Shown piece after piece: positions 5,389-58,408 of a DNA stretch of 58,408 nucleotides. The stretch comes from a virus. Below the pieces are notes generated by a model, which was not told the origin of the DNA, made no database searches, and was given only the letters and a program-made list of their open reading frames with translations. The position numbers and the translations under genes are program-made. Location: positions 1-58,408 of IMG/VR virus record IMGVR_UViG_3300044497_000111; one strand, given 5' to 3'. Numbering within the stretch: position 1 is the first letter of the stretch; every line of letters starts with the position of its first letter.

Positions 5389-5814
5389 CTATTTCCGATT
5401 GAGGCGGGTCGCCGCCGCCTCGATCCGTTTCCCGAGCTCGACGCCGTAGCGATGGATCGTCGCTTCGGCGTACTCGTCGAACGCCGGCCGCATGAACGGC
5501 TGCGCCTGTTGATGCACGGTGCCGAATTCCGAAAACAAGCCATAGAAGTGCTTGCCATCCGGCCCGAGCGCGTACGTGATTTCGACGTCGTTGTCGCCCG
5601 TCTCGGGCTTCATCTTGCGCAGCTTGATGCTGTCGGCCATGTGGCCGTGCTTCCCCGGATTCGACGACCGGGGGGCTTCCTGCTGCGCGGCGGCCTCCAT
5701 CGGCTTCGCCGCATCGCGCAACGCCTGCGCCATGACCTTGCCCGCGATTTCTTCGGGCAATTTCCGCAGCGCCTTTTCGAGCTCCTCGAAGCCCGACATC
5801 TTGATCGTGAACAT
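5389..5814 (-). CDS. HK97 gp10-family head-tail/tail component
   Basis: MFTIKMSGFEELEKALRKL...FYGLFSEFGTVHQQAQPFMRPA matches the HK97-gp10-like pattern (..EfGT...qPFl.pA). Only the last 141 codons of track ORF 5389..6573 look coding. Confidence 0.7.
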   Translation of the reverse strand: MFTIKMSGFEELEKALRKLPEEIAGKVMAQALRDAAKPMEAAAQQEAPRSSNPGKHGHMADSIKLRKMKPETGDNDVEITYALGPDGKHFYGLFSEFGTVHQQAQPFMRPAFDEYAEATIHRYGVELGKRIEAAATRLNRK

Positions 5815-5825
5815 CGCCGCCCGTC

Positions 5826-6581
5826 CTAGACGGCGATGCCCGTGTACCACGCCGGAGTCGGTGTCGTCTTCCAGTGCGCGGTCGTCGTGTCGAGCAGCAC
5901 GACGTGCTGACCGGTCGTCCACGTCGTCGCCGGATTCGCCACGATGCCCGTCATGGCGGCGAAATTCGCCGGGGTCACCGCGCCCGATGGCGTAAACGAG
6001 CCGGGGGTGCCCGCGTCCGCCCCCGTGGCAAGGACCGCGCCCGTGCCTTCGAATTCGATGTCGCCCGTGATCTGATACGTCACGTTCAATTGCAGCTTGC
6101 CGCCGACGTCCTGGCCGGTCTTCTCGGCGCTCGCGATGTAGCCGAAGTAATCCCAGCCGTTGCCGTCGGGGAACACTTCGCGCAGGGAGAATTCCTCCTG
6201 CGAATCCAAGTACGCCAGCAATTGCACGTGCGAGGCGTTCTCGGGAATGTACTGAATCGTGAACGACAGAATGCCCGAGTCGATGAAGCTCGGCTTGTAC
6301 TCGCGCCGCCGGTTCGGGCTGCGGAGATGCGTGAAGTCGATCCGCTCGGTCGTGCCGCCGCCGCCGCTGATGTTGGTGACCTCGGCGATTTCGGAGTACC
6401 CCGCCGGGGCCAGTCCCGGCTCGTCCGCCATCAGCAGATACGATCCCTGTGCGGGCAAGCCGTCGCTCCCGCCTGCGATGTACGGCACGGCGTAGACGAA
6501 CGGCCGCGAGAGGCCGACGCCATACCACCACCGGCGCACACGCACGAAAAACATTCCCCTGCCAACATCCCATCGCTTCAT
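5826..6581 (-). CDS. Major tail (tube) protein candidate
   Basis: 251-aa ORF with a strong SD (AAGGAGAG) 6 nt before ATG 6581. It sits between the tail-completion and chaperone genes and has a Thr/Gly-rich C-terminal extension. Confidence 0.6.
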   Translation of the reverse strand: MKRWDVGRGMFFVRVRRWWYGVGLSRPFVYAVPYIAGGSDGLPAQGSYLLMADEPGLAPAGYSEIAEVTNISGGGGTTERIDFTHLRSPNRRREYKPSFIDSGILSFTIQYIPENASHVQLLAYLDSQEEFSLREVFPDGNGWDYFGYIASAEKTGQDVGGKLQLNVTYQITGDIEFEGTGAVLATGADAGTPGSFTPSGAVTPANFAAMTGIVANPATTWTTGQHVVLLDTTTAHWKTTPTPAWYTGIAV

Positions 6582-7418: not shown

Positions 7419-8050
7419 GCCGTCACCAGTCGGCGCTTCGACGGCAGCGCGTAGTACTTGAATTGCCGCATGATCGATTCGGCGCCGATGGGCAGCACCG
7501 CGAGCGTGCCGCCGCGTGTTTGCGGCACCACTTCGGTGCGATGCGTATGGAAATGCGCGGCGAGAAAATACAGGGCGCCGCGAATCAATTCGGGCACGTC
7601 ACCGGGCTGCGCCCCGTAGCCGCAGCGATACCGAATGCGGACGGTGCCCCGGTCGGCCGTGACGGTCGGCCACGTGCCGCCACTGAGCGGCCGGATGCTG
7701 CCGCGTCGAGCGTAGGGACCGACCGGCGCCGTCACGCGATAGTCGGTGTCCGCGACGAGCACGGTGTCGTCGTCGCCATAGGTCACGCTCAACACGTCCA
7801 AGAGCGGCGGCAGCGGCAATTCGATCACGCCTGCGGGGAAGCCTTCGATCTGGTATTCCCACGTCGCGTCGATAAGCTGGCGCCCCGTGTACTCTTCGAA
7901 CATCTGCCGCGCCATCGCGATATAGGTCGTGATGAGCGCGTCCTCACCCGACGTCACGACCTTGATCTGCTTCTTCATCTCGACGAGGCTGATCGGTTCG
8001 ACCGCTGGCGGCGTGATCAACGAGAGGTCCGAGTACAGTGGCGTGATCAC
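7415..8050 (-). CDS. Head-tail connector (gp6-like, Phage_connect_1-type)
   Basis: ISLVEMKKQIKVVTSGEDALITTYIAMARQMFEEYTGRQL is the classic gp6-like N-terminus. GTG 8050 forms a GTGA overlap with the upstream stop. The track ORF start at 8221 lies inside the collagen-like gene. Confidence 0.7.
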   Translation of the reverse strand: MITPLYSDLSLITPPAVEPISLVEMKKQIKVVTSGEDALITTYIAMARQMFEEYTGRQLIDATWEYQIEGFPAGVIELPLPPLLDVLSVTYGDDDTVLVADTDYRVTAPVGPYARRGSIRPLSGGTWPTVTADRGTVRIRYRCGYGAQPGDVPELIRGALYFLAAHFHTHRTEVVPQTRGGTLAVLPIGAESIMRQFKYYALPSKRRLVTA

Positions 8051-9030
8051 GGCGTGACCCTCATGCCGCCGGTGTAGTCCTTGCCGTCGCGGCCGTCGAG
8101 ACCCTTGTCGCCCTTCTCCCCCGCCTTGCCGTCGCGCCCCGCCTTGACGGCCAGCCGCCATGCCCGTGCCGCTTCGCCCGGTCGACCGGGCACCGAGCTG
8201 GTGGGCTCTTGGCAAATCCACATGCTGCCGCCGTAGCTGACCGTGTCGCCCTTTTCGTACGCTCGCTGCTGGGTGTAGACACCACGATCCAAGAGCAGCC
8301 CTTCGAAGTAGAAGACGCCGCCTTCGATGGGCGTGCCGTCTTTCCAGCAGACGGTGATCGTGCGTTCGCCGTCGTGGGCGAATTTGATCTGGCCGACGAC
8401 GGCATCCCGCCCGTTGATGCCGTTCGTGCCATCGAGACCCTTCTCGCCCTTGTCGCCCTGTGGCCCCGGCACGCCGGGCAAGCCGTCGCGACCATGCAGG
8501 CCGTCGAGACCCTTCTCGCCGCGCTCACCGGGATCGCCCTTCGCCCCTGTCGCGCCGACCGAGCCGTCCGCGCCGCGCTCCCCCTGGGGACCGGGGGTGC
8601 CGTCGATGCCGTCTCGCCCTGGGGCGCCGACCTGGCCGGGCTCCCCTGGCGGCCCCTGGGCGCCGACCTGGCCGGGTGCCCCTGGCTCACCGGGGTCGCC
8701 CCTGGCGCCGTCCATGCCGCGCTCGCCGGCCGGGCCGGGTTCGCCCCTGGCGCCGATTTCGCCGGGTTCCCCTGGCGGGCCTGGTGCCCCTGGCAATCCG
8801 GGGGCGCCGTCGAGACCCTTCTCGCCAGTCGGACCGGGGGGGCCGTCACGACCGGGTGTCCCTTCGGGACCGGTGACCGCTTTCGTCGCCACGAACAGGT
8901 CAACCCGCTCGACCACGGCGGCCATCTCGACGCGGACGTCCCGCCGGACTTCGTCGATTCGCACGGCCACATAACGCTTGATGAGCGCGGTGATGCCATC
9001 GACTAAACGATTTAGGGTCGCAGTCTTCAT
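8047..9030 (-). CDS. Collagen-like (Gly-X-Y) repeat protein with globular C-terminal domain
   Basis: About 55 uninterrupted G-X-Y triplets (GPEGTPGRDGPPGPTGEKG...). C-terminal ...YEKGDTVSYGGSMWICQEPT resembles a CBM5/12-type sugar-binding motif. ATG 9030 overlaps the upstream stop (ATGA). Confidence 0.8.
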   Translation of the reverse strand: MKTATLNRLVDGITALIKRYVAVRIDEVRRDVRVEMAAVVERVDLFVATKAVTGPEGTPGRDGPPGPTGEKGLDGAPGLPGAPGPPGEPGEIGARGEPGPAGERGMDGARGDPGEPGAPGQVGAQGPPGEPGQVGAPGRDGIDGTPGPQGERGADGSVGATGAKGDPGERGEKGLDGLHGRDGLPGVPGPQGDKGEKGLDGTNGINGRDAVVGQIKFAHDGERTITVCWKDGTPIEGGVFYFEGLLLDRGVYTQQRAYEKGDTVSYGGSMWICQEPTSSVPGRPGEAARAWRLAVKAGRDGKAGEKGDKGLDGRDGKDYTGGMRVTP

Positions 9031-9239
9031 CGCGTCTCCGGGGGGACGATCTCGAGAATCGCGTGAACCACCGCGCAGCACGGAATCTTTGCCGCACGTT
9101 TCACGATGCACATCGCGCACAAGAGCCCGTGTTCATCGGGGTGAATCGTCAACCATTGCGAACGCGGCAAGATCACGTCGAGCGGGAAATCGCCATATGG
9201 CAGGCCGCAATCGAGACACGCGGCAGGCGGCGGCGTCAT
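9027..9239 (-). CDS. Small Cys-rich protein (possible Zn-binding)
   Basis: 70 aa with CLDCG...CAMC...CC. ATGA overlaps at both ends (portal stop and collagen-like start). Confidence 0.5.
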   Translation of the reverse strand: MTPPPAACLDCGLPYGDFPLDVILPRSQWLTIHPDEHGLLCAMCIVKRAAKIPCCAVVHAILEIVPPETR

Positions 9240-10714
9240 AGGGACGCCTCCTGTAGTAGCTCAAGCGACACTTCCATACGGTCGAGGGCGGCGCCCACGC
9301 CATCCTCGTCGTCCTCGTCGTCGTCGTGGTCGTCCTCGTCGTCGGCTTTCGTGACGGCGGTGGGCGGCACGGGCTTCGTCCCGCTCGCGAAGGGATCGGC
9401 TTGTTGGTCGCGCTTGTTCAGGGCTTCGAGGCTAAAGTTTTGCTGCTGCAGGAAACAGGCATCGCCGCCCGGTACCGGCGGCTTGCTGAAGAGCTCGCGG
9501 CCTTCGTTCGGCGTGAAGATGGCGCCGAGGACGCCCTTGGTCGCCAAGTCCATCTGCGTGAGCGAGTCCATGCGCAGCAGCGCATTGAGGTCGAGCTCGA
9601 CGCCCAATTCCCGGTCGGCCGTGTGCGGCAATTCCAAGCCTTCGTCGAGGCATATCTCAAGACTCTCGATCAATTGCTGCAGGGCTTGGTTGTAGTACTC
9701 GATGTTGGCGGCCTGCACGTTGCCGTACGGCGGCATCGGCGCGAGCCCGATCTTCCACGGTGGCACGTGATAGCAGGCGCAGGTAATCTCGCCCGTCCAC
9801 TTCAATTGCTCAATCAATTGCGCGTCGTGCGCCGAGATCGTCATCGGCTCGTAGTGCAAGCCGTCGCCGAGCACGGCCACCCGGCCCGCATTCACGCCGG
9901 TGTAATTGCCTTCCCAGTCCTCTTCGACCCGTTTCGCCGTGGCATCGCTAATCAGGCCCGGCGCCGTCAGGATGCCGCCCGGCTGCGACCGGTTCGCGAA
10001 GAATTGCTCGCTGTTCTCCTGAATTTTCAGCCCTTGCAGCGCCGCCATGCCGCAGGCGTGAATCGGCGAGACCCCGACCAACGGGTGATAGAGCGGCACC
10101 ATCAGGTCGTGAATGATTTCGCTCGCGGGCACGGTGACCGACCCCGCCATGCCGGTGAGGTTGTCTTTCGTGAGCTTGTAATAGACGGCGCCGTCGGGCG
10201 CCACGAGCGGTTCCACGCGACTCGCGTCGAGGATGTACATCGCGATGACGATGCCGCGAGCGTCCCGCTGTTTGAGCACGTAGGTATTGCCACGGGTCAG
10301 CTTCGACAGAATCCAGCACTCGATGAATTTCAGGCGCGTCTGATAGCGGTTCGGCTTGCGCAGGACCGGCTTGAACGGCGAGTCGCCCGCAAGGTCAATC
10401 CAGATGCCGTTTTTTTTCTCGAGCAGCCCCAGCCACAATTTCGAAATGTCCGAACTAATCAGCGTGATGCACGCCCACGCGGGCGGAAACGTCAACGTGT
10501 CCTGCACGCTGGTTTCCTGATTGCGCTGCCAGGCGCCCGGTGACGGCTCGCGCACAATCGGCCACCAGCCGCCGGTGATACCGCCGTTGCGACTCGAGAC
10601 CGATTGCCCCGTGACGACGACGGGCGCCCGCTTCTGGACCGGCGCCAATCGGTGCAGATATTGGGGGCCGTCCGAGTCCGGCGTGTGGGTCACGTCGAAG
10701 CCGAGAATCTTCAT
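9236..10714 (-). CDS. Portal protein (HK97 family)
   Basis: 492 aa. Conserved portal core (...NRYQT...YVLKQRDARG...QFFANRSQPGGILT...AVLGDGLHYEPM...) and an acidic C-terminal tail. Confidence 0.85.
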   Translation of the reverse strand: MKILGFDVTHTPDSDGPQYLHRLAPVQKRAPVVVTGQSVSSRNGGITGGWWPIVREPSPGAWQRNQETSVQDTLTFPPAWACITLISSDISKLWLGLLEKKNGIWIDLAGDSPFKPVLRKPNRYQTRLKFIECWILSKLTRGNTYVLKQRDARGIVIAMYILDASRVEPLVAPDGAVYYKLTKDNLTGMAGSVTVPASEIIHDLMVPLYHPLVGVSPIHACGMAALQGLKIQENSEQFFANRSQPGGILTAPGLISDATAKRVEEDWEGNYTGVNAGRVAVLGDGLHYEPMTISAHDAQLIEQLKWTGEITCACYHVPPWKIGLAPMPPYGNVQAANIEYYNQALQQLIESLEICLDEGLELPHTADRELGVELDLNALLRMDSLTQMDLATKGVLGAIFTPNEGRELFSKPPVPGGDACFLQQQNFSLEALNKRDQQADPFASGTKPVPPTAVTKADDEDDHDDDEDDEDGVGAALDRMEVSLELLQEASL

Positions 10715-10946: not shown

Positions 10947-12989
10947 TTACGCCGCCGGTCGCTCAGTCACCGGCCGACGCGGACGCTCGGGCGTCGTGTT
11001 CGGACCCGCCGACAACGGCGCCGAGGTGTAGCCGACCGCATCGAGCCACGCCACGGCTTGTGGCCGCATCCGTGCCCAATTGATGAACCGCTCGGCCCGC
11101 AGCGCGATGCTGTTGGTCTGGAACATCGAGACGACGGTCGTCGGTGTCGCCGCCGGGGAACTCGCCATCGTCGGCGCGTCGTCCATTTGCAACGACGCTT
11201 CGCGGCTGACGTCGACGGTCACTTGCCCGTCATCGGACAGGAAGATTTCCTTCGCGTTCGCGAGAATGACAATCGCCGAATCAGCCGTGCCCACCGTCGC
11301 CGCATACTGCGACGTGACGACCGGAATGCCGAGCAACGTGCCGCCCATCATGGTGACGTCGGGGAATTCACGGACGCCGGTCGTGCCGTTCTTGATGAGC
11401 GAGAGGCGCATCGCCACGGTCGACGGCATAATCCAGACGGCGGTCTCGATGCTCTGATTCGACGCGAGGAACGCATCGACCAAGGCGCCGAGGTCCGCCA
11501 GCGGGTCGGTCGTCGCCGGAATGCCCGCGACTCCGTTGGTGATCGACGCGGGCGAGACCCCAGCCACGGCGGCTTTCGCCGGGTCGATGAAGTCGATGTC
11601 GATGCGCTCGATGAGCGCGGCGGCCAATTGGTCGCGCACCATCTGTTCGGCGCTCGGACTCGAGAACCGGGCGAGCTCTTCGGTGAGCACCGAAATCGCC
11701 GCGACCTTCGCCCAGGTCAACGTCGTCGGCGCCACGCCGAACCGCGTGAGCGGTTTCGCCGCGCCCTGTCCGACCCAGTACCCGGCCCCGCCGCTCGTCT
11801 GGCCGATGACGCGCACGTTGAAGGGCACCATCGTCAGGCCCGGAATGTTGCCGATGATCGTCTTCGGCCGCAGCCACTCGATGAATTCCGTGGCGAGATT
11901 CGCCGGGTCCACGAGCGCCCCCATGTAAGTCGCGTCGGACGTGTTCGACGCGGCGACGGCGGCTTTCAGGTACTGCTGCACGCGAGCGTCGTGCGGGTAG
12001 CGTTCGGTCGCAATCTCGGCCGCGTTCCGGTACTGCTTGAACGCCTGCATCTTGCACATCACCGCACGGGCGAAGCCGATACCGGGCTTCGTGTTGTCGC
12101 GGACGGTGATGATGCCGGTCCCACTGCGTGCGGCGGCGGCGGCGTCAGGCGTGGCGCCCGCGACCGGCAGCGCCTTGGTCACGTTGATCTTTTCGAGTTC
12201 TTTCAGGTCGACCAATTCGGCGTCGATCCTTGTGATCTCGGCGCGGAGTTCGTCGAATTCGGTTTTCTCGGCGTCGTCCTTCGTGCGGCCGTCGTCGAGC
12301 GCCTTCGTTTGAATTTCATCCAGCCGTGCCGCCTTCGCCGCTCGCGTCGACTCGAGATCCTTGATCTGTTCGCCGTAGGTTTTCTTCATGGGTCGTCCCT
12401 GTCGCGGCAGGAGCTTCACGCCGCGCACAGTGTCCGAAACGCCGGACGGGATGGAAGGGGCGACCGGTGCCTCAGTGCCAAGCGCGGCAAGGTCCGTGTC
12501 GAAGTCGCGGAGAGCTTTCATCGTGAGAATCGCGGCGGCGGTATTCGCGGGAATCGTGACGGCGCTCAATTCAATCCACAGCCACTTCACGAATTTGAAG
12601 CCGCTGATCATGCCGTCTTTGTCTTCGATGAGGTCGACCTTCAGCCCCCGGAAGCCAATCGACAGGCCGCGCACGAGCCCGGCCTTGATCGTGTGCCATG
12701 CCTCGTCGAGTCGATCCTTCAGGCGGCCAGGTTCCGCAAACCGGCTGATGCGGGCCTGAATTTCGATTCCGGCTTTCGTGTGCTTGGCGGCGAAGACTTC
12801 GCCTATCGGCTGCTTGCTGTCGTGTTGCCACAACAGCGGAATCGGTAATTGGAATTCGGCGCCGGTCGGATCGACGATGTCACCCGCCCGGTCGGTCTCG
12901 GCGTTCGTGGCGATGCCGGTGATGATGCGCTGCTCGTCGTCGAACGACTTGAACGTCAGCAGGCTGTAGATCCGGCGGTCGTCGTGCAT
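10947..12989 (-). CDS. Prohead protease (HK97 S78/U35-type) fused to major capsid protein (HK97 fold)
   Basis: The N-terminal ~165 aa (ITGIATNAETDRAGDIVDP...LLWQHDSKQPIG...LSIGF...ELSAVTIPAN) match the prohead protease. A coiled-coil linker follows (KTYGEQIKDLE...DLKELEK). The C-terminal ~380 aa have the HK97 MCP pattern (...TLTWAKVAAISVLTEELARFS...). Confidence 0.85.
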   Translation of the reverse strand: MHDDRRIYSLLTFKSFDDEQRIITGIATNAETDRAGDIVDPTGAEFQLPIPLLWQHDSKQPIGEVFAAKHTKAGIEIQARISRFAEPGRLKDRLDEAWHTIKAGLVRGLSIGFRGLKVDLIEDKDGMISGFKFVKWLWIELSAVTIPANTAAAILTMKALRDFDTDLAALGTEAPVAPSIPSGVSDTVRGVKLLPRQGRPMKKTYGEQIKDLESTRAAKAARLDEIQTKALDDGRTKDDAEKTEFDELRAEITRIDAELVDLKELEKINVTKALPVAGATPDAAAAARSGTGIITVRDNTKPGIGFARAVMCKMQAFKQYRNAAEIATERYPHDARVQQYLKAAVAASNTSDATYMGALVDPANLATEFIEWLRPKTIIGNIPGLTMVPFNVRVIGQTSGGAGYWVGQGAAKPLTRFGVAPTTLTWAKVAAISVLTEELARFSSPSAEQMVRDQLAAALIERIDIDFIDPAKAAVAGVSPASITNGVAGIPATTDPLADLGALVDAFLASNQSIETAVWIMPSTVAMRLSLIKNGTTGVREFPDVTMMGGTLLGIPVVTSQYAATVGTADSAIVILANAKEIFLSDDGQVTVDVSREASLQMDDAPTMASSPAATPTTVVSMFQTNSIALRAERFINWARMRPQAVAWLDAVGYTSAPLSAGPNTTPERPRRPVTERPAA

Positions 12990-13039
12990 GTCGGCGACGA
13001 GTGTGCCGACCTTCCGGCGAGTCGCCTATTTTTCAGTAC

Positions 13040-13200
13040 AAAATTCGCCGCGAAGCAACGAAGCAAAATGGAAGCAAACGCGAAGCAAATTGCTTCTGTT
13101 TTGCTTTGAAGCAAACGAAGCAAAACGGAAGCAAACATGAAGCAACCTGTACGAAGCAAAACGGAAGCCCCGTACCCAGTACGTACTTTGCTTCGACGTA
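13040..13200. repeat. Iteron-like array of GAAGCAA heptamers (9 direct, 3 inverted) with two central palindromes
   Basis: Direct copies start at 13052, 13060, 13071, 13082, 13108, 13117, 13128, 13139 and 13153. Inverted copies lie at 13090-96, 13101-07 and 13188-94. A 23-nt unit ACGAAGCAAAAYGGAAGC... occurs at 13058-80, 13115-37 and 13151-73. The local sequence is visibly AT-richer than its flanks. Confidence 0.85.
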
Positions 13201-13240
13201 CGTACGTCTTCTTAGTCCCCGATCTTCGTACTAGTACCGT

Positions 13241-13266
13241 TATTAAAAGCAGTGCCTTCGGCACTT
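13241..13266 (-). terminator. Possible intrinsic terminator after the terminase/RHH unit
   Basis: Minus strand reads AGTGCC-gaa-GGCACT followed by GCTTTTAATAA, about 40 nt after the RHH stop. The stem is short (5-6 bp). Confidence 0.35.
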
Positions 13267-13305
13267 TAGCGCCGAAAAACGGAAGAATGCAGGACGGAGA
13301 GGCCG

Positions 13306-13515
13306 TTACTTCAGCCGACCGGTGAGCACGTCGCGCAGGGTTCCGGCAAGGGTCGTTCGCCGAGTCTTCGCCATCTGAATCAGGCGGTCGTAGTCGGTGA
13401 TCGGCAGCCGCGTGTTGACCGCCACGGTCTCTTCCACGCTGACGCGAGGACGTCCCCGACGGCGTCGGTCGGGCACGAAGAGCAGCGGCGTCGTCTCGTT
13501 GTCCTGGTCGCTCAT
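13306..13515 (-). CDS. Ribbon-helix-helix (CopG/Arc-like) DNA-binding protein
   Basis: 69 aa. ...RGRPRVSVEETVAVNTRLPITDYDRLIQMAKTRRTTLAGTLRDVL fits a strand-helix-helix layout. ATG 13515 overlaps the terL stop (ATGA). Confidence 0.5.
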   Translation of the reverse strand: MSDQDNETTPLLFVPDRRRRGRPRVSVEETVAVNTRLPITDYDRLIQMAKTRRTTLAGTLRDVLTGRLK

Positions 13516-15302
13516 CGGCGTCCCCCCAGAATCAGCACTTGGTATTTGGGCGCGGCTGCGGGCTGCACGCCGAGCACCTTCGCGGCCATGAGCATCGCCA
13601 CGGCGCCGTCGATGCGTTTCGCGGCATTCCGGGGCTTGACGGGTCGGATGCGTCCGGCATCGTCGGTCTTCACCGAGACGTTTTCCCAATTCCATCGGAG
13701 CAGCCGGTGCCCGTCGTGTTGGACGCGCCCGCCCTTAATCAACGCCTCGACGATCTGCGCCGGTTCGGAGAGCATCTTGTAGTTCTGCAGCACTTCGAGA
13801 ATCTGCACGCCGCCGACGTCGCGCAATTTCGTGGCGATGTCGGTCGCAAACGCCGGGTCGTAGCCGATCAACCCCTGTTTCAGCCTCGGGTAGCGCGGCA
13901 GGATCTTCGTCGTGATGTCGGTGTAAATGTGCGTGTAGTCGATGACGTCGCCGTCGGTCGGCGTCACTAAGCCTTGATCGACCCACGTCGAATAGGGCAC
14001 GCCGTCCTGATGTTCGTGCTGCCGCATTGTGTTTTCGGGAATCCAGAAGTACGGCCGGCAAATGAGTTCGTAATTGAGTGCGATCTGCTTCGTGACGATG
14101 TCGCCGGTCGCTTCTTCCGTTTTCACGTCGACCGTGACCGGCGCGGCCAGGTAACGGCGGAATACCACATGGAAGCACGCCAAGTCCCACTTCTGCGCCA
14201 AGTCGAGCCCGGCGCCGCACTCGAGACCGACGAGCTCGGCGTCGTCGAGCGTGGCCTGACAGGCGTCCCACCATTCGATGGGAATCCACGCCGTGGCTTG
14301 GTTCGTCCAGCGGTTCAGGTGATAGCGCAGGAAGTCGTTGCGTTTCCGGGGTTCGCTCTGCGCTTCCCGGCACTCTTCGACGACGGCCGCGTGCTGCACG
14401 GTCTTACCGTGGCCGGGATTGACTCGACGCCAGACGACCGGGTCGGCCCAATCTTCGTCGCTCTGCATTTCGAAGAGCACCGGCAAGGTCTCTTCGATGT
14501 CGGTCGCGCCGAGTAACACCCGTTTGGCGAGTTCGTACTCTTCGTAGCAGATGCCTTCGTCGTCGGTGCCTGCGTGCGTGATGATCACCATCATCGGCTG
14601 GCGGCGTTTCGCCATCGACTTGCGCAGGGCTTCAAATAGATCGCGGTTCTTCTGGGCGTGCAGCTCGTCGAGAATGATGCCGTGCGGCCGGTAGCCGTGC
14701 TTCGTCGAGGCGTCCGACGAGAGCACCATGAGCTTGGCGTACAGGTCGGGCCACGCAATCGTGTTCTTCAGAATCTCCGAGCCGTCGAACAGATCCGGCG
14801 AATTTTCCACCATGACCTTGGCGTTGTCGTGAACGATGCGGGCCTGCTCGCGGTCGGCCGCCACGGCGTAGACTTCGGCCGCCGGTTCGCCGTCGAACCG
14901 GGCCAGGTAAATGCCCATCCCGGCGCCCATCGGGGATTTGCCCCAGCCCTTCGGGCAGAACGCGAAGACCTTCCGAAATCGGCGCGTGCCGTCGCTCGTG
15001 CGGCGCCACCCAAATGCCGGTTTCACAATGAGCAACGACTGGTCGGGTCGCAGATGAAACGGCTTCCCGGCGAATTCCCCCATGTGATGCTGCAGGAAGC
15101 AGGGGAAGAAATCAGCGGCGCGGTTCGCCTTGTCGGGGTCGTAGTAATAGCGCCCGCGATGCGTTTCCCAGCGACTTCGGAGCGTCGACCATGTCGCCTT
15201 GAAATCCAGCGAGACTCCCGCCCAGCGTTCGTGCGGCGGGCGACCGGTGCCCCACCAGTGCCGACGGGTCCGCGAATGATCGCTAAGTGCGACGACGGCC
15301 AT
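13512..15302 (-). CDS. terL: Terminase large subunit (Terminase_1 / HK97-P27 type)
   Basis: ...HHMGEFAGKPFHLRPDQ...FAFCPKGWGKSPMGAGMG... (Walker A-like) plus a C-terminal nuclease region. ATG 15302 was chosen because the upstream extension to 15425 reads CPTSADVACPSTRPP, which looks non-protein-like. Confidence 0.85.
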   Translation of the reverse strand: MAVVALSDHSRTRRHWWGTGRPPHERWAGVSLDFKATWSTLRSRWETHRGRYYYDPDKANRAADFFPCFLQHHMGEFAGKPFHLRPDQSLLIVKPAFGWRRTSDGTRRFRKVFAFCPKGWGKSPMGAGMGIYLARFDGEPAAEVYAVAADREQARIVHDNAKVMVENSPDLFDGSEILKNTIAWPDLYAKLMVLSSDASTKHGYRPHGIILDELHAQKNRDLFEALRKSMAKRRQPMMVIITHAGTDDEGICYEEYELAKRVLLGATDIEETLPVLFEMQSDEDWADPVVWRRVNPGHGKTVQHAAVVEECREAQSEPRKRNDFLRYHLNRWTNQATAWIPIEWWDACQATLDDAELVGLECGAGLDLAQKWDLACFHVVFRRYLAAPVTVDVKTEEATGDIVTKQIALNYELICRPYFWIPENTMRQHEHQDGVPYSTWVDQGLVTPTDGDVIDYTHIYTDITTKILPRYPRLKQGLIGYDPAFATDIATKLRDVGGVQILEVLQNYKMLSEPAQIVEALIKGGRVQHDGHRLLRWNWENVSVKTDDAGRIRPVKPRNAAKRIDGAVAMLMAAKVLGVQPAAAPKYQVLILGGRR

Positions 15303-15501
15303 GAATCGGGCACCGGGGATCTCGCGCCACGAGACCGGTCGGGCGCAGCACGTCCAGAAATTCGGCGGCGAATTGCGCGGCGGCCGGGTCGACGGGCACG
15401 CGACGTCGGCGCTTGTCGGGCACAATCGTCACGACGAGCCGCAGACAGCGGCAGATCGGCACCTTCGGTGGGTTCGTTTTCGTCGTGCGTTTCTTCGTCA
15501 T
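15283..15501 (-). CDS. Hypothetical small basic protein
   Basis: 72 aa (MTKKRTTKTNPPK...PAAAQFAAEFLDVLRPTG...). ATGA overlap with the upstream ORF, and its 3' end overlaps the terL start. Confidence 0.45.
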   Translation of the reverse strand: MTKKRTTKTNPPKVPICRCLRLVVTIVPDKRRRRVPVDPAAAQFAAEFLDVLRPTGLVARDPRCPIHGRRRT

Positions 15502-15881: not shown

Positions 15882-16370
15882 CTATCCCGTCGAACTCTGG
15901 AAAAATTTCGCTCGTCGTTTGTCGATGGCGCCCTTCGGTGCCCGGTTCTTCACCTTCACGCGAGACCGACTCGACGGCGTCAGCCCGAGCTCGGCGTCGA
16001 CCTGTAACAGCAATTTCAGCGTCCGATTCGCCATCCCGAGCGCGGGGTTCGGCATCGGGTAGCCGTGCTTCCCTGCCGCGATGACATTCGCGTGCCGTCC
16101 ACCTTCGAGCAATTGGGATCGACGCGCCGCCCACAATTCGCAGTGCCCGATTGCCATCGCCCGGTCGGCCGCCGTGATCTGCCCGGTCCCTATCGCGGGC
16201 ACAATCGTCCGCGTCCACTCGGCCTGCGCCACCGGGTCCACCAATTCGGCGGGACAGGCTTCGTCGAGACTCTCCGGGTGCGGTTCGTCGACGTTCAAGG
16301 GGCGCCGCCCCGGATTGCCTTGCAGGATTTTCAGGACCGTCGGCTTTGGCTTGGTTCCACGCATACCCAT
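15882..16370 (-). CDS. terS: Terminase small subunit (P27 family)
   Basis: MRGTKPKPTVLKILQGNPGRRPLN...GLTPSSRSRVKV is the hallmark P27-family (Terminase_4) pattern. Confidence 0.85.
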   Translation of the reverse strand: MGMRGTKPKPTVLKILQGNPGRRPLNVDEPHPESLDEACPAELVDPVAQAEWTRTIVPAIGTGQITAADRAMAIGHCELWAARRSQLLEGGRHANVIAAGKHGYPMPNPALGMANRTLKLLLQVDAELGLTPSSRSRVKVKNRAPKGAIDKRRAKFFQSSTG

Positions 16371-16440: not shown

Positions 16441-16720
16441 TGTCATCGGTCATCCGACCGACCGTCGACCATCTCCCGACCTGTCTCCCGACCGACCCCG
16501 ACCGGTCGTCGACCATCGACCGACCGTGGGAACGACCTGCCCGACCGTCTAGCGTCTCGCCTGCCGCGTTCAGAGACCACCCGACGACGTCTTGACCGGT
16601 CCCGACGACCGACCGTGCCCCGACGTCGCCCCGACCGTCCCGACTTTGACCTTCGAACGGAACTCGCGCTCGTGTCTGAGACCCTTCCCGGCGGTCCCGC
16701 CCTGCCTAGGCGGGGCGCCA
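16441..16720. repeat. Intergenic (CCGA)n / GTCTCCCGACCG repeat region R1 between HNH and terS (candidate cos region)
   Basis: catctcccgacctgtctcccgaccgaccccgaccgg..., plus blocks shared with 23381-23415 and 52459-52498. No credible ORF. Confidence 0.8.
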
Positions 16721-17408: not shown

Positions 17409-17669
17409 TCAGGCCACGATGATCGACAGCACCCACAACGCCAGCCCCGTCGCGACCAGGTTAATACGAGCAGGCACGCCTGCTGCTGCCGCCACGAACG
17501 CGATGAACGCCACGATTTGCAGAATGAGCGAGAGCGTCAGCAGCATGTCGGTCTCCTTGGTGTGTGCGTGTGCGGTGTCTCGCGTGTCTCGAGTCGCCAA
17601 CAGCAGCGCCGCGCCGCCGATGACTAGGCCAAGCACGATGCCGATCAGCACGTTACCCGCCGCGCTCAC
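17409..17669 (-). CDS. Holin-like small membrane protein (3 predicted TM segments; alternative start ATG 17546)
   Basis: [25 protein letters not shown]...[23 protein letters not shown]...[21 protein letters not shown] 17669 overlaps the upstream stop (GTGA). The internal ATG 17546 has a strong AAGGAGA SD. Confidence 0.45.
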
Positions 17670-18454
17670 AGGCCTTCTAAGTCCCGCACGCGTTGTTCGA
17701 GCGCGTCCACGCGCATCGTCAGGCCCGAGTCGCCGCCGGTGGCCCGCACGAACACCTGTTGCGCCGTATTGATTGCCACGCCCACGATGGGCGCCGTGAC
17801 GGGGATCTCTGCGTACAGGCCTTTGTCGATGGGCGGTCCGGTCGTCGTCAGGCGCACATAGCGGGTGTGATCGTCCTTGTCCTGCAGAAGCATCGTCGCG
17901 CCCGTGGGCAGGATCATCAGCCCCCAATAGAGATCCTGCCCGTCGGCCGAGACGAATCGCAGCCACACTTTGCTCACGCTCGTGTACGGATAGGCGGCGT
18001 CCAGACGGACTTGGCCTGCCGACGGCGGCTCGGCGAGCGAATTGTTGTAGGTGTAATTGAAGATGCCCGTCCGCACGGTCAATGCCGTGCCGATGACAAT
18101 GAAGCTGGGACTGAGCGTGATCTCTTCCGCAGGACCGGCGCCGGCATCGCCGCGCCCGACGAGCCGCGATGGCGCACTCAGCGATGGGAAGGTGCCGTCC
18201 GCGCCGTCGGCACCGTCCGCACCGGCGGGACCGGGTGCCCCGGCGGGACCAGTGGGACCAGTGGGACCGGCAGGTCCGGGCGGGCCATCGGCGCCATCAG
18301 CACCAGCGGGACCAGCCGGTCCTGCAGGCCCGACCGGACCGGGATCGCCACCGGCCGTTCCCGGCGGACCGGGCGGCCCCTGTACCCCGACCGGCGCAAT
18401 CTCGATGATGATCGGCGGCGGGACGAGGACGTCGATGGCGTGAATGTCAGACAT
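17666..18454 (-). CDS. Collagen-like tail fibre protein
   Basis: [14 protein letters not shown]... is followed by about 23 G-X-Y triplets ([26 protein letters not shown]...) and a ~170-aa globular C-terminal domain. Confidence 0.75.
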
Positions 18455-18830
18455 GCGCGACCTCGCGAACGGGCACCGGCGGCGTGACGACCTGGGCGCC
18501 TGTTGTCTCGCCCTGCACGATGACGCTACCCGCCACGATGGTGCGAATCTCGCCGCTCGGATACGTGAGTTGCAAATCCCACTGGCCCGAGACCGGCACG
18601 ACGAGCGAATCACCGGCCGAGAGCGCGACGTCGATGATGTTCGCCGCGATGCTGCACGTCAGCAGGATCGGCGATTCCGTTTTCGGCGGTGATGATCGAA
18701 TCGCGGCGCTCGCGACCACGCCGGTGAGATCCACGGGTTCGGTCTTCAGGAGATTGGCCCACAGGCGAAATTGCCGCCGATAGGAATCGCCGCGATAGAG
18801 CTCAAGCGTGTAATTGACAGGCAGTGCCAT
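18447..18830 (-). CDS. BppU-N-like (Ig-like) tail/baseplate protein
   Basis: AAGGGAGAA SD before ATG 18830. ...[13 protein letters not shown]...DLTG...GQWDLQLTY pattern. Confidence 0.45.
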
Positions 18831-34830: not shown

Positions 34831-35075
34831 CAGGCCTTCGTCGACCGCTTGCGCCACTGCTGCGCATCTGGACACGTGGCGAAGTGACTCGTCGTCTGCG
34901 TCATGTCGACGCAATCGAAATCGAAGAGGGGGGAATCGGTGCCGTCCACCGGCAGCAGCACAATCGGCCGATTGAAGGGCATCGCCTTGCCGCTGTCGGC
35001 GAGCTTCGCCCATTCGATGGGCGCGTCACATGACCGGCAATGCCCGAGCGCACGCGACCGATGCAGAATCAGCAT
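34830..35075 (-). CDS. Hypothetical Zn-binding-type protein
   Basis: ...CRSCDAPIEWAKL...GKAMPFN...HFATCPD. Confidence 0.45.
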   Translation of the reverse strand: MLILHRSRALGHCRSCDAPIEWAKLADSGKAMPFNRPIVLLPVDGTDSPLFDFDCVDMTQTTSHFATCPDAQQWRKRSTKA

Positions 35076-35740
35076 GGCAAGTGCTGCTCCACCGCCACGC
35101 GCCGCCGGACGAGCTCGGCTCGTGCGAGGTCGCGATCCTTCTGATGTATTTCCCGGTCGCAGGCCGCCAATAACAACGGCAGGCCGGTCTCGATGGATTC
35201 GAGAATCTCGGCCCGTGTCGCGAGGCGCCCTTCGCGGTACCACGCGACGGCGGTCGGGTCGCCGAGCTCAATCAACGGGCGCCCGTTGTGATCACGGTGG
35301 ACGTGATAGGTCTTCGTCGTCCAGAGCAACGTGACGCCGGGATTGCGTGGAATCATTTCGCCCGCGACCTGTTTCATGCCCTCGATGCTGAAGTCGTCTT
35401 CACGGCGGACCATCGTCGGCCGCGACAGGAAGGGGCAATTGTTCGCCGACCACGTCGCGCAGTCGGTGTGGTTCGGCGGCTCGCTCGTGGTCCGATTGAT
35501 CGCGCACATCGGGCCGATCACGAACGTGCGATGGCGCCCCAGAATGCCGCCGCACACCCAGCACAGCGACTCTTGAATCGCTCGCTTCCATTTCTTCGGG
35601 TCCATCGCCCGGAATTCGGGCTTGCCGTCGACCCAGTCGACGAACCACGGCACCACATACCCACGGTCAATCGGCAAGCGGCGCATCCGGTCCGGCATTC
35701 CGGCGAGGTCGAGCTCAGGGCGCAGTGTCGTCGTCGTCAT
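35069..35740 (-). CDS. Hypothetical conserved protein
   Basis: 223-aa ORF (...CWVCGGILG...CATWSANNCPF...). TGATG junction with the upstream gene. Confidence 0.55.
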   Translation of the reverse strand: MTTTTLRPELDLAGMPDRMRRLPIDRGYVVPWFVDWVDGKPEFRAMDPKKWKRAIQESLCWVCGGILGRHRTFVIGPMCAINRTTSEPPNHTDCATWSANNCPFLSRPTMVRREDDFSIEGMKQVAGEMIPRNPGVTLLWTTKTYHVHRDHNGRPLIELGDPTAVAWYREGRLATRAEILESIETGLPLLLAACDREIHQKDRDLARAELVRRRVAVEQHLPC

Positions 35741-36057: not shown

Positions 36058-36299
36058 CTGCGTGCCGTCTCCTTCAGTTTCGGATTCCACGTACCGTCCT
36101 TCATGCGCCGCTGCGCAATCGCCGATTCGAGTGCGCCTTGGAGTTGGCGACTGTACGTCCACGTAAAGTGCAGGGCCGCGACCCGGTCCTTGAGCGCGTC
36201 GGATAGATCGGGGTCATTGATCAACGCGGGTCGTTCATCGAGCAACGTGTGCGCGATCTTGACGAGCTGACGATGGGTCGCCTGTTCAATCGGTCTCAC
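36027..36299 (-). CDS. Hypothetical protein
   Basis: GTG 36299 forms a GTGA overlap with the upstream stop. VRPIEQATHRQLVKIAHTLLDERPAL... Confidence 0.45.
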   Translation of the reverse strand: MRPIEQATHRQLVKIAHTLLDERPALINDPDLSDALKDRVAALHFTWTYSRQLQGALESAIAQRRMKDGTWNPKLKETARRWSRRSGKFL

Positions 36300-36691
36300 T
36301 GTTTCGTCACCTTTCGGCGCACGAAGCCCGACTTCAGGCCGCCGTTCCGACCCGCCTGCGCCCGGACGGCATGCAACCGTTCGCGGTTTTCCTGTACGCG
36401 CTTGGCGGTGAAGTTGTGATCGTGAAAGTCGTGGATGACAAACCCGCCATCGGCTTTTTCCCACAGTCCGGCTTTCACAAGCGCATCGGCGACCTTGATC
36501 GGCTGGTCGAAGTGCGGCCATTTCTTCACAACCGACAGCGGCAAATGGCCGTCGGTGAGATGTTTGTTTGTCCACATCAGACCGAGCGAGACCATGCCGA
36601 GCACCATGCCCGGCCCGTCCTTGCCGAGCAGGTCGCCCGCGATGAACACTTTTCGGTGATCGAGCAAGCCGTCGTCGAGTCGTGACCACAT
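36296..36691 (-). CDS. Conserved phage protein (winged-helix-like; replication/organiser-type context)
   Basis: GAGGA SD before ATG 36691. MWSRLDDGLLDHRKV...LVKAGLWEKADGGFVIHDFHDHN. Confidence 0.5.
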   Translation of the reverse strand: MWSRLDDGLLDHRKVFIAGDLLGKDGPGMVLGMVSLGLMWTNKHLTDGHLPLSVVKKWPHFDQPIKVADALVKAGLWEKADGGFVIHDFHDHNFTAKRVQENRERLHAVRAQAGRNGGLKSGFVRRKVTKQ

Positions 36692-42715: not shown

Positions 42716-42961
42716 GTGAAGAGATTTTCCCGACCCGTCCTCGTGACGACGCCTCGCGGCGAACAGCAGTCCGTCCAGCGACCGCGTCCGCTCAACGCGC
42801 AATTGGCGACGTCGACCGACCCGCACATGACCGACCTGTTCCAGCACGCGAATGCGCTCCAAGTGCTGGCACTCGAGGCGCCGCAACACTTCATGGCAAT
42901 CCTGCGGCAGACCCAACGACTGGCGAACGCGATTCGTCGGCGCAGAAAACCGAGCGCGTGA
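42716..42961 (+). CDS. Hypothetical small basic protein upstream of int
   Basis: 81-aa ORF with good GC3, ending 10 nt before the int ATG. Confidence 0.4.
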   Translation: MKRFSRPVLVTTPRGEQQSVQRPRPLNAQLATSTDPHMTDLFQHANALQVLALEAPQHFMAILRQTQRLANAIRRRRKPSA

Positions 42962-42971
42962 GACTCTCCTG

Positions 42972-44300
42972 ATGCCATCGAAAATCAAACGCACGAAAGT
43001 CGAACCGAATATCTGGCGCCGCCCGAGCGGTGTCTACGAAGCCCGGCTGACGGTCACCGGCCGCCCGCCGGTGTTGGAGACGTTTCCACCGGACACGTCG
43101 ATCAAGGAGATTCGCCAGTGGATCGCCGACAAACGCAGCGAACTCGAAAAGGATTGCCGTCTCTTCGGTCGACTCACGCGACAGGCGCAGGCACAGGCGA
43201 CCGGCACGCTCGAAGGCGATGCCTCGCGGTATCTCAATCAAATTGCTGGCCGTGAAGGGTCGAAGGCGGACGGGTCGCATCTGCGGGCATGGTTCGACGT
43301 CGAGGTCGTCGTCGACCACGTCCGCGTCCGACTCGGGGGACTGGCGCGTGCCGACTGGACCGCCGAACACGTGAACCTGGCGATTGCCGCATGGCAGAAA
43401 AAACCGTCCCCACATGCCATTCGGAAAGTCGTCGTGCGGGCGTCTCAACGGGACGCCCACACCATCGGCACGCATCGCATCGCGGCGACGACCGTGAAGG
43501 CGCACGACCGGACCGGTCATGCCTGCGCCACGGTACGCGGCTACGAACGCCAAGGGTCGGTCATCACCGAACACGCACGGGCGGCGCACACGATTCGTCG
43601 CTACGAACGAACAGCCCCGGCGACGAGCGGCCACATCGTCGCCACGAAAACGATTCGCCATCGGTGTCGGGTGCTCGCGCATCTGTTCCACACGCTCGAC
43701 GGCCCGAAGGCGCCAACGCCGGTCGACGACGCCCGTGTGCCGAAGCATTCGCAGACGCCGCCGGTCACGGTGTCGGCCGAGGTCATCGCGAAGACGCTGG
43801 AAAAGCTGGTCGCGCTCGACGAGAAAATGTTTGCGCGGTTTTACCTGCACGCCGTCACCGCGCAGCGACCCTGTCAGATCGAACGGGCACAACCCGGCGA
43901 TGTGCTGCTCGGCGACGAGCGGTCGTGGCTCGTACGCAACGCGAAGGGCGAACCCGCGCACACCTTTGCCTTGAACGATCATCACGTCCGCGCATGGGAG
44001 TACTTCATCAAGGTGGACGCGTGGGGTACCTTCGACCGGTCCGAATACGGCAAGGTTATTCACAAAGCGGGATGGCCGAAAGGCGTCCGCCCCTACAGTG
44101 CGCGACATTCGCTGGCGGTCGACGCGATTCGGCGTGGCGTCAGTCTCGGCGATGTACAGGCGATGCTCGGCCACACGCAGATCCAGACGACGCGGACGTT
44201 CTATGCGCCCTTCCAAGTCGACCGGCAGCGCGTGGTCAGCGAACAGATGGCGCCGTATCTGGCCGACGTGTTGAAGCCACGACTCGTGGGGAAGAAATGA
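42972..44300 (+). CDS. int: Tyrosine integrase with N-terminal arm-binding-type domain
   Basis: N-terminus ...NIWRRPSGVYEARLTVTGRP.... Catalytic region ...RPCQIERA..., ...YSARHSLAV..., ...MLGHTQIQTTRTFY (R..H.R..Y). Confidence 0.85.
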   Translation: MPSKIKRTKVEPNIWRRPSGVYEARLTVTGRPPVLETFPPDTSIKEIRQWIADKRSELEKDCRLFGRLTRQAQAQATGTLEGDASRYLNQIAGREGSKADGSHLRAWFDVEVVVDHVRVRLGGLARADWTAEHVNLAIAAWQKKPSPHAIRKVVVRASQRDAHTIGTHRIAATTVKAHDRTGHACATVRGYERQGSVITEHARAAHTIRRYERTAPATSGHIVATKTIRHRCRVLAHLFHTLDGPKAPTPVDDARVPKHSQTPPVTVSAEVIAKTLEKLVALDEKMFARFYLHAVTAQRPCQIERAQPGDVLLGDERSWLVRNAKGEPAHTFALNDHHVRAWEYFIKVDAWGTFDRSEYGKVIHKAGWPKGVRPYSARHSLAVDAIRRGVSLGDVQAMLGHTQIQTTRTFYAPFQVDRQRVVSEQMAPYLADVLKPRLVGKK

Positions 44301-52319: not shown

Positions 52320-52640
52320 CCCTTCGCGAGACGACCGCGCCGACCGGTCTGGCTGACCGGCTGGCGGTCGACCCGTCGACCGGTCGACCTGTCGAGACCG
52401 GTCTCCCGACCGACCGTCCCACGGTCTTCCCGCGACCGTCGGACCGACCGGTCACGAAAACGACCTGCCGACCGGTCTAGCTGACCGCCTGCCACGTCTG
52501 GGACCGGTCGGTCGACCGTCGAGACCGGTCGGGTGGGTCGTCGGTCTGGCGACCTGCTGGCCCGGTCGGTCGCGAGACCCGGTCCCGAGACGGTCCCGAC
52601 CGGTCGTCGTCGACGTGTCAGGCGAGACCTGACACGACCG
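52320..52640. repeat. Repeat region R4 (largest member of the GACCGGTC / GTCTCCCGACCG family)
   Basis: Tandem GTCGACC x3 (52365-52390). Palindrome GAGACCGGTCTC (52394-52405). GTCCCACGGTC. A 40-nt block at 52459-52498 shared with 16531-16570. A 9-bp hairpin at 52614-52636. Confidence 0.85.
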
Positions 52641-52643
52641 GTC

Positions 52644-52926
52644 GGGGTGCCAAATGGGGTGCCAAATCGAAAAGACAATCAGACGAAATCAAAGGCAATC
52701 GGAGACAACAAAACGCGGACCGGATTTGGCACCCCGCGAGCGGTCGACGACCGCGCCGACAGGGGGCACGTGGCAGATTGCCTAATGTTTTTGCTGATTT
52801 CGCGCTTGTGGAAGGTGGTTGCGGGGGGGGGATTTGAACCCCCGACCTTTGGGTTATGAGCCCACAGGTAAGAGCTCAATCGCTTAAATCCTTAGCAAAA
52901 ACGCACAGCGCGTTGGGGTGCCAAAT
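52644..52926. repeat. GGGGTGCCAAAT repeats (candidate integrase arm-type sites) flanking the tRNA fragment
   Basis: Direct copies at 52644-55, 52656-67 and 52915-26. Inverted copy at 52724-35. Confidence 0.75.
52816..52866 (-). tRNA. 3' half of an initiator-type tRNA-Met(CAT)-like gene (partial; candidate attP core)
   Basis: Minus strand reads TGTGGGCTCATAACCCAAAGGTCGGGGGTTCAAATCCCCCCCCCGCAACCA. This gives an anticodon arm with three G:C pairs and a CAT anticodon, a T arm, the acceptor 3' strand CCCCGCA-A-CCA (as in E. coli tRNA-fMet), and an encoded CCA. No matching 5' acceptor strand or D arm lies upstream. Confidence 0.7.
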
Positions 52927-58012: not shown

Positions 58013-58408
58013 CTACACGCCGGGCCGCAGGCCACGCCCGACTTCCTGGAATTGCAGCCGTTGCGCCGTGATTTCCGGGCGATCCCAGCGCACCGATTCA
58101 TCCGTCATGGCGTACCGCACGAGATAGCACCGGTCGGCGCGAATTGGCCCCGACGGCACGATGACCCACGGACGGGCACTGCCCTCAACGTCGTACCAGT
58201 GCGTTTCGAGCGCGGCCCGCATTTCGTCGGTGAGCAGAATGTCGGCCTCGTGTCCCCAGAGCGTGGTGCCGCGTGGATAGATCGTCGACACGCCGAAGGC
58301 CGTTCGATTCTCGATTTGCGGCTTGTCGGCCCGCACGCTCAAGCCCCAACGTAAATCGGGATCGAAGTGGGAGTACGTCGGATGAAACCGGACCTGGCCG
58401 ACTTGAAT
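58013..58408 (-). CDS. Distal-tail-type minor tail protein, 3' part (same gene as 1-628; 58282-58408 duplicates 1-127)
   Basis: The frame of track ORF 58013..58342 stays open to the window end and continues in phase at nt 628-1. Confidence 0.6.
   Translation of the reverse strand: MQVGQVRFHPTYSHFDPDLRWGLSVRADKPQIENRTAFGVSTIYPRGTTLWGHEADILLTDEMRAALETHWYDVEGSARPWVIVPSGPIRADRCYLVRYAMTDESVRWDRPEITAQRLQFQEVGRGLRPGV
58282..58408. repeat. Terminal direct repeat, copy B (identical to 1-127)
   Basis: Direct reading of both ends. Confidence 0.95.

Follow-up and report, generated by a model that had tools for sequence, protein, structure and literature searches.

A probable iteron-type replication origin, parted from its initiator gene, in the late operon of a metagenomic temperate phage

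The IMG/VR virus record IMGVR_UViG_3300044497_000111, which was analysed over its whole 58,408 nucleotides (nt) and is called the window below, contains an array of the heptamer GAAGCAA between the gene of the large terminase subunit (terL) and that of the major capsid protein (MCP). Judging from sequence comparison, this array is probably the iteron-type origin module of a temperate phage (about 13051-13300), displaced from its place behind the initiator gene. The origin reading is supported because the array is homologous to modules that stand next to initiator genes in related phages, and because the window also encodes a matching initiator. The initial annotation had described a multi-site protein-binding locus, with a replication origin as one of its options, and both the general reading and this option are supported.

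The array and the parts of the module

The array lies in a noncoding gap of 316 nt (12990-13305), which had been called AT-richer and indeed shows 50% GC against about 64% for the genome. Nine exact direct copies of GAAGCAA start at 13052, 13060, 13071, 13082, 13108, 13117, 13128, 13139 and 13153, with start-to-start spacings of 8, 11, 11, 26, 9, 11, 11 and 14 nt, exactly the count and the 26-nt gap that were first reported. Regarding the three inverted copies reported with them, two are exact (13090-13096 and 13188-13194), whereas the third, TTTGCTT at 13100-13106, matches at 6 of 7 bases and keeps the core AAGCAA. There is also a degenerate direct copy, GAAGCCC, at 13164. The array thus has a short direct motif repeated at roughly helical spacing, as in iteron-type origins, and the mostly 11-bp spacing would put the iterons on one face of the helix.

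The whole window has 18 copies of GAAGCAA, while dinucleotide-preserving shuffles gave 5.2 +/- 2.4 and none of 100 reached 18. Furthermore, 11 of the 18 copies are packed into 143 nt, a length for which about 0.017 copies would be expected at the background rate. The longer repeats noted earlier near 13058, 13115 and 13151 were found as 18-nt units at these three positions (94-100%) and as 32-nt units at 13057 and 13114 (91%), and the sequences of the two palindromes, GAAGCAA-a-TTGCTTC at 13082-13096 and TTTGCTT-tg-AAGCAAA at 13100-13115, were verified. Single-strand folding of the module was only moderately better than that of shuffles (z = -2.97), an effect of the inverted iterons. The window shows the iterons and the CCCCGTACCC module only once, and a tandem-repeat search (TRF) gave no other comparable noncoding array in it.

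Iteron block I (13052-13088, plus strand) holds the first four direct copies, spaced 8, 11 and 11 nt, and iteron block II (13108-13170, plus strand) the other five exact direct copies together with GAAGCCC. Between them stands the central inverted pair (13090-13106, minus strand), made of the exact TTGCTTC and of TTTGCTT. Together with the direct copies on either side the pair makes up head-to-head palindromes, and it is also among the gap's three AT-rich patches. The palindromic centre GAAGCAAATTGCTT is also present in L130, and AGCAAgTTGCT in L134 (L-numbers denote the metagenomic loci that were fetched).

After the iterons comes the CCCCGTACCC box (13168-13177, plus strand), which occurs once in the window and takes the same post-iteron place in L124, L126, L128, L131, L142 and L132-L135. 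It is followed by a GTAC-rich stretch (13178-13238), homologous to L124 and L128, with three palindromes, AGTACGTACT (13178-13187), GACGTACGTACGTC (13195-13208) and GTACTAGTAC (13228-13237), and the inverted iteron at 13188-13194. The highest GTAC density of the genome is found around the module, with 9 copies in the 270 nt of 13030-13300, 7 of them from 13172 onward. The last part (13239-13278) consists of the AT-rich GTTATTAAAAG and then a GC hairpin with AGTGCC-ttcg-GGCACT at 13251-13265. This hairpin (13251-13278) is terminator-like on the minus strand, that is, in the sense direction of the late operon. The AT-rich/hairpin unit is kept in L124 (ATTAAAAGCAGTGAC...GTCACT), and a hairpin is found at the same position in L125, L126, L128, L129, L131, L142 and the cultured Propionibacterium phage Anatole (NC_041890). 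The 20-nt windows with 30% GC or less, at 13083-13107 and 13228-13251, are short patches in this 64% GC genome.

Homologous modules behind the initiator gene in relatives

We compared ten distinct relatives that carry the initiator gene (L124-L126, L128-L131, L139, L141 and L142); L127 carries the same protein and module as L126. In nine of the ten a noncoding stretch of about 110-240 nt lies directly 3' of the initiator gene, the exception being L142, where three inserted genes (1.9 kb) stand between the gene and the module. For L130 and L139 the contig breaks off within the module, which leaves eight readable relatives (L124, L125, L126, L128, L129, L131, L141 and L142). All eight show the same layout of initiator gene, iterons, GTAC-rich/AT-rich stretch and GC hairpin, and so does Anatole, in a 190-nt gap after gp45, which is annotated as 'replication initiation protein'. 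Exact copies of the CCCCGTACCC box are found in L124, L126, L128, L131 and L142, while L129, L141 and Anatole have variants of it (ACCCCGTACCCGTACCCGTACCC in Anatole) and L125 lacks it.

Within the window, 13061-13267 is the only place matched by the modules of L124, L128 and L130, with E values of 5.5e-23, 3.7e-13 and 5.6e-7 respectively. The alignment with the L124 module has 80% identity over 131 columns and scores 120 against 15 +/- 2 for shuffles. Searches for the CCCCGTACCC...CGTACGTACG pattern in IMG/VR and for the module pattern in GTDB genomes gave no match, and the latter thus pointed to no host.

The initiator gene

The matching initiator gene (36296-36691, minus strand) encodes a stand-alone replication-initiator N-domain of 131 amino acids (aa). 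In PHROG the protein is matched by family 2447, 'replication initiation protein' (E 1.1e-18), and also by 9474 and 3926, and it is 35% identical to the N-domain of proteins whose genes carry the array inside them. Its C-terminus, AGRNGGLKSGFVRRKVTKQ followed by the stop codon, falls exactly where the array begins in these homologues. A search of 5.8 billion proteins found 39 homologues at 45-69% identity, most of them stand-alone proteins of 115-155 aa and some fused to an HNH domain; for those from actinophage records the annotation reads replication initiation protein or RepA-like. A single-protein search of IMG/VR gave no relative, and a sequence search of PDB with the initiator profile gave nothing meaningful.

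The AlphaFold model of the initiator, made from a 33-sequence alignment, has a pLDDT of 87.5 and the order H-S-H-H-S-S (H, helix; S, strand), in which a winged-helix-like core leads into a long basic C-terminal helix. When the model was compared with PDB by Foldseek, winged-helix proteins dominated the weak hits (best E 0.05). The predicted fold is consistent with DNA binding, although it does not prove it. The PHROG 2447 match, the winged-helix-like model and the class of the C-terminal tail, described below, together identify a cognate initiator in the same genome, and this 131-aa protein would be the binder of the array.

What differs from the relatives is the position. Iterons lie in or beside the initiator gene in most of the fetched relatives, and in 86 of 110 IMG/VR loci if arrays inside any open reading frame (ORF) are counted, whereas here the array and the initiator gene are 23 kb apart.

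An empty site after the initiator gene and an insert at the terL-capsid junction

In L124 the gene order is AAA_24, rep, module, gene X and gene Y. The window has the counterparts of all four genes (63% aa identity for AAA_24, 64% for rep, 55% for X and 60% for Y) with no DNA between rep and X; actually, the TGA of the initiator gene overlaps the GTG of the next gene (GTGA), which leaves no room for an origin module. Since the window is syntenic with L124 except for the intergenic DNA, the module is precisely missing at the ancestral site. There is no GAAGCAA cluster or module copy in or near 36296-36691, and the single module copy of the window sits in the terL-capsid gap, 23 kb from the initiator gene.

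The gap itself shows what has been added. Next to terL is a 69-aa ORF (13306-13515, minus strand) with some likeness to ribbon-helix-helix (RHH) proteins, and in L126 and L131 the whole gap between the RHH-like ORF and the capsid gene is 57 nt long. The 60 nt upstream of the capsid start in the window (13050-12990) align with this whole gap, including the box AATTnTnGTACTnnnAAATAGG and a GC-rich stem, so we regard 12990-13050 (minus strand) as the native capsid-upstream spacer. Therefore about 255 nt (13051-13305) are extra, and the left edge of the insert is near 13051. In PAJU2, IME307 and L115-L122 terL and the MCP gene are contiguous, and in such more distant relatives the gaps are 20-60 nt. 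Two candidate features were discarded. The left AT-rich patch (13024-13048), considered as an unwinding element, aligns with the native spacer of L126/L131 and consequently lies outside the moved module. A putative 'scar', by which the 5' end of the post-module gene of L124 would have been carried along to 13283-13303, was dropped because 43 of 1000 shuffles scored as well.

The closest capsid relatives, L114 and the identical L113 (84% aa identity of the MCP), have a different insert of 3.3 kb at the junction between the RHH-like ORF and the capsid gene (L114 620-4000). This insert encodes a 58%-identical homologue of the window gene 35069-35740, which belongs to the replication module. The terL-capsid junction therefore appears as an insertion hot spot where the position of the array is not conserved, and it exchanges genes with the replication module. 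The L114 insert also contains a tandem palindrome, TACCTAGCTAGGTA, in two copies at 1970-1997.

Initiator tails match the iterons, also where the two are apart

The C-terminal tail of the initiator and the iteron sequence vary together. The tail AGRxGG(L/K)xS is found with GAAGCAA-type iterons (window, L124, L128, L130 and Anatole), AG[IA]NGAR[AV]RW with ATAGCAA (L126, L131 and L142), AGKRGAKSRW with ATGGCAA (L139) and an RK-rich tail with GGAATCC-type iterons (L129 and L141); the iterons of L125 are GGACCTAG. The initiator of the window, with the tail AGRNGGLKSG, belongs to the GAAGCAA class although the array is 23 kb away. In loci whose iterons adjoin the gene, such a match could come from co-transfer of adjacent DNA. 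However, the match also holds where the two are unlinked, as over 23 kb in the window and over 1.9 kb in L142, and this supports a functional pairing. The tail of the initiator may set the specificity, or tail and iterons may travel together as a cassette. This matched series of protein tails and iterons is material for studying the specificity of origin recognition.

Furthermore, the window is not the only case of separation. In L142 the module is at 2310-2500 and the initiator gene at 165-539, and the inserted genes include an MT-A70 methyltransferase. In L134 the array (14030-14282) is about 8 kb from a stand-alone initiator homologue (5507-6202). L042 has eight GAAGCAA copies in two blocks at 2556-2672, apparently intergenic between a scaffold-like and a capsid-like gene, with a portal-like gene adjoining and all these genes called by eye; here too the array falls within a structural module. 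Taken together, the four cases indicate that detachment of the module from the initiator gene recurs.

How the module may work, and what weighs against an origin

By analogy with the lambda O protein and ori, and with gp38 of SPP1 and its oriL and oriR, the 131-aa winged-helix initiator would bind the GAAGCAA iterons. The iterons form two direct blocks around a head-to-head pair, and binding to them would assemble a wrapped nucleoprotein complex. This complex might then open the adjacent GTAC-rich/AT-rich stretch (13178-13250), after which helicase-loading factors of the host or of the phage would start theta replication. We infer both the firing of the origin at the array and the place of unwinding.

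Several points weigh against an origin at this site. The GC skew, a check that the initial annotation had named, shows no origin signal, and no replicative helicase or loader was found among the genes scanned. The binding of the initiator to the array is deduced from the co-occurrence of the two sequences, and the structural matches of the initiator model in Foldseek are below significance. At this junction L113/L114 have no GAAGCAA array, that is, the position is not conserved. Finally, an origin with a terminator-like hairpin inside the late operon must be compatible with the expression of the capsid genes.

Alternative explanations

An alternative that we consider unlikely is that the array is an auxiliary site comparable to oriR of SPP1, that is, a roadblock or secondary origin of the late region bound by the initiator, which would for instance stall forks and trigger the change from theta replication to concatemers, while primary initiation takes place at an unrecognised site. 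In SPP1, gp38 binds oriL, inside gene 38, and also oriR, which lies in a noncoding moron segment that breaks into the late genes and has transcription signals on either side; gp38 bound at oriR has been proposed to stall forks (PMC6316719). The noncoding insert in the window, with its terminator-like hairpin, mirrors this arrangement in that it stands between terL and the MCP gene, although a scan for sigma-70-like promoters found none. Against this reading, neither the iterons nor the CCCCGTACCC module has a second copy in the window, there is no other comparable noncoding array, and the site after the initiator gene is empty. A role as fork barrier, like that of oriR, is plausible by analogy as a secondary or alternative function of the array.

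Quite unlikely, in our view, is that the array is a non-functional relic, an origin fragment dropped into the insertion hot spot by illegitimate recombination in a phage that replicates from another site or by a recombination-dependent mode. The junction between terL or the RHH-like ORF and the MCP gene is variable, as the 3.3-kb insert of L113/L114 with its replication-module homologue shows, and the window encodes recombination genes (AAA_24 and PD-(D/E)XK). But the module is whole in all its parts, with nine exact heptamers, the gene of the cognate initiator is intact too and of the matching tail class, and the genome has no other copy of the module.

The adjacent RHH-like protein was the binder suggested in the initial annotation, and the array could in that case be an operator bank by which this protein controls transcription of the capsid operon. 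RHH proteins bind tandem repeats, and the ORF adjoins the array. The coupling of the ORF to terL was confirmed, with a 4-nt overlap with the terL stop, but its RHH fold is weakly indicated: neither Pfam nor PHROG gave a hit, the PDB profile search reached the pRN1 RHH protein ORF56 at E 0.14, and the AlphaFold model from a single sequence was poor (pLDDT 64). Searches of IMG/VR with peptide patterns gave no RHH homologues, while among the fetched loci homologues directly after terL are present in L113/L114 (58% aa identity) and in L126 and L131 (32-35%), in each case with no array adjoining and in L126/L131 with only the 57-nt gap. Conversely, the arrays of the relatives have no RHH gene beside them, and both these and the 110 IMG/VR loci keep company with replication genes. 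The array is thus not inherited with the RHH-like gene, and the proposed link between the two is not supported. In addition, a sigma-70 promoter scan of 12800-13600 found none, and we consider an operator function very unlikely. The 69-aa ORF looks like a conserved partner of terL that is unrelated to the array.

A packaging recognition site (pac/cosB) bound by TerS, the other option raised at the outset, is hardly credible: repeat arrays are typical of terminase recognition sites and the array adjoins terL, but it lies downstream of that gene and not within or just upstream of terS, the homologous modules of the relatives follow the initiator gene 5-6 kb from terS/terL, and the same terL-MCP order elsewhere has a gap of 20-60 nt. 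Moreover, the terS region upstream of terL has its own GGTCGG-type repeats directly upstream of terS at 16454-16540 (TRF period 22, 3.3 copies), and this cluster is a better pac/cosB candidate than the GAAGCAA array.

The array across IMG/VR

IMG/VR was scanned for the pattern GAAGCAA-N4-GAAGCAA-N4-GAAGCAA, which was found at 110 loci with 23-74% GC. The array lies inside an ORF in 86 of them, and 7 more run off the contig end. The ORFs with the array are about 200-300 aa long, with about 80-120 aa before the array and 110-140 aa after it. Among those sampled, the N-domains belong to at least four families: PHROG 2447/3926/9474 'replication initiation protein', DUF6291, Lin1244_N and PHROG 16167/5810/345 ('replication initiation O-like'). 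The DUF6291 family, of 'unknown function' in Pfam, accounts for 54 loci (for example L003, L010, L019 and L013), often with DUF7833 as well. Here the array stands immediately after the DUF6291 domain, which suggests that DUF6291 proteins initiate replication from origins contained in the very genes that encode them. All three reading frames of the 11-nt unit are used (EA, KQ and SK; for example AKQNRSKAEANAKQNEAN), even where the phage has above 70% GC, and this points to selection on the DNA and not on the peptide.

One may go further and ask whether the GAAGCAA/11-nt array is a widely shared, portable origin core that lies in or after initiator genes with at least four unrelated N-domains (PHROG 2447/3926, DUF6291, Lin1244_N and PHROG 16167/5810). 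This generalisation is tentative, and we lean against it at present. If it were true, recognition of the motif would fall to one shared element instead of to each N-domain, the candidates being the short basic AGRxGGxxSG tail ahead of the array or a conserved host factor, and the origin core would be detachable and moved as a cassette, as in the window (23 kb), L134 (8 kb), L142 (1.9 kb) and L042. The searchable literature, which was one library and gives no proof of novelty, contained no account of the GAAGCAA array or the Anatole-type module, nor of DUF6291 proteins as initiators that carry an origin. The conservation of the array across families is a more novel lead than the displaced module. 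From a practical point of view, the pattern used for the scan flags replication-initiator genes and origins in uncultured phages.

Genome context

The two ends of the window share an exact direct repeat of 127 nt (1-127 and 58282-58408), which indicates a circular assembly of about 58.3 kb (unique length about 58,281 bp). It encodes a tyrosine integrase (42852-44300), a ParB_N protein and the AAA_24 and PD-(D/E)XK recombination genes, and these features together with the circular assembly point to a complete temperate phage genome of metagenomic origin. On the minus strand the order of the late genes is terS (Terminase_4, 15882-16370), upstream of terL (13512-15425), the 69-aa ORF, the 316-nt gap with the array, a prohead protease-major capsid fusion (10947-12989) and the portal gene (9236-10714). 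The tRNA scan found none, no Rfam family matched, and in a blastn comparison of the terL-MCP region with cultured phages there were only short matches of the capsid gene at about 67% identity.

Other features of the genome were also observed. CTAG is strongly avoided across the window, with 13 copies against about 193 expected from base composition, and TCGA is 3.4-fold over-represented. The stretch of lowest GC in the genome (41650-41800, 38% over 150 nt) lies between divergent genes near the integrase and is probably the early/immunity switch region. A cluster of short tandem repeats with periods of 8-16 nt (GTCGACCC, CGGTCCCGAGAC and GGGGTGCCAAAT) occupies 52340-52700, where there are few confident genes. 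Two proteins with collagen triple-helix repeats are encoded at 8047-9120 and 17666-18613, one of them with a CBM_5_12 carbohydrate-binding module, and both are probable tail fibres; one of the genes lies upstream of terS, apart from the main tail module.

Comparison with known systems

Iteron origins bound by a phage initiator are textbook knowledge. The window differs in that the single, probable origin module of its temperate phage is parted from the initiator gene and lies inside the late structural operon. Such an arrangement is a natural test of whether the position of the origin matters for phage replication, of how replication and late transcription coexist at one locus, and of whether late-region arrays bound by the initiator act as fork barriers, as proposed for oriR of SPP1.

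SPP1 is the closest precedent, and the likeness is one of layout and placement. Its oriL and oriR carry repeats in direct orientation as well as an AT-rich element, and oriR lies, like the array, among late genes far from the initiator gene. However, SPP1 keeps oriL in gene 38, whereas the window has no copy in or at the initiator gene, and this phage is temperate and of high GC.

The ori of lambda lies in the linker-coding part of gene O, with helically phased iterons that are bound by the N-terminal domain of the initiator. The 86 of 110 IMG/VR loci in which the iterons are in the linker-coding middle of an ORF resemble this arrangement, the sampled ORFs being initiator genes. In the window, by contrast, the initiator consists of an N-domain alone, the iterons lie between genes at a distance of 23 kb, and the repeated unit is a 7-bp core at 11-bp spacing instead of the 19-bp iterons of lambda. 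No homology to O or P was found in the phage of the window.

Arrays bound by RHH proteins are known from parC of plasmid R1, with ParR, and from the heptads of the omega protein of pSM19035. Like these, the array groups short direct repeats, about 11 bp apart, into two blocks on either side of a central region and has heptamers in both orientations, but arrays of the window type co-occur with replication initiators and not with the RHH-like gene.

The closest cultured example is Anatole, whose genome paper does not describe an origin (PMC5831693). Its initiator gp45 is only 29% identical in aa to that of the window, and its module has stayed at the ancestral position, directly after the gene. 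Nevertheless, gp45 is also a stand-alone initiator, of 121 aa and with the tail AGRRGGKKS, and behind it come GTAAGCAA iterons spaced 11 nt apart, then CCCCGTACCCGTACCC, an AT-rich stretch and a hairpin, just as the parts are arranged in the module of the window.

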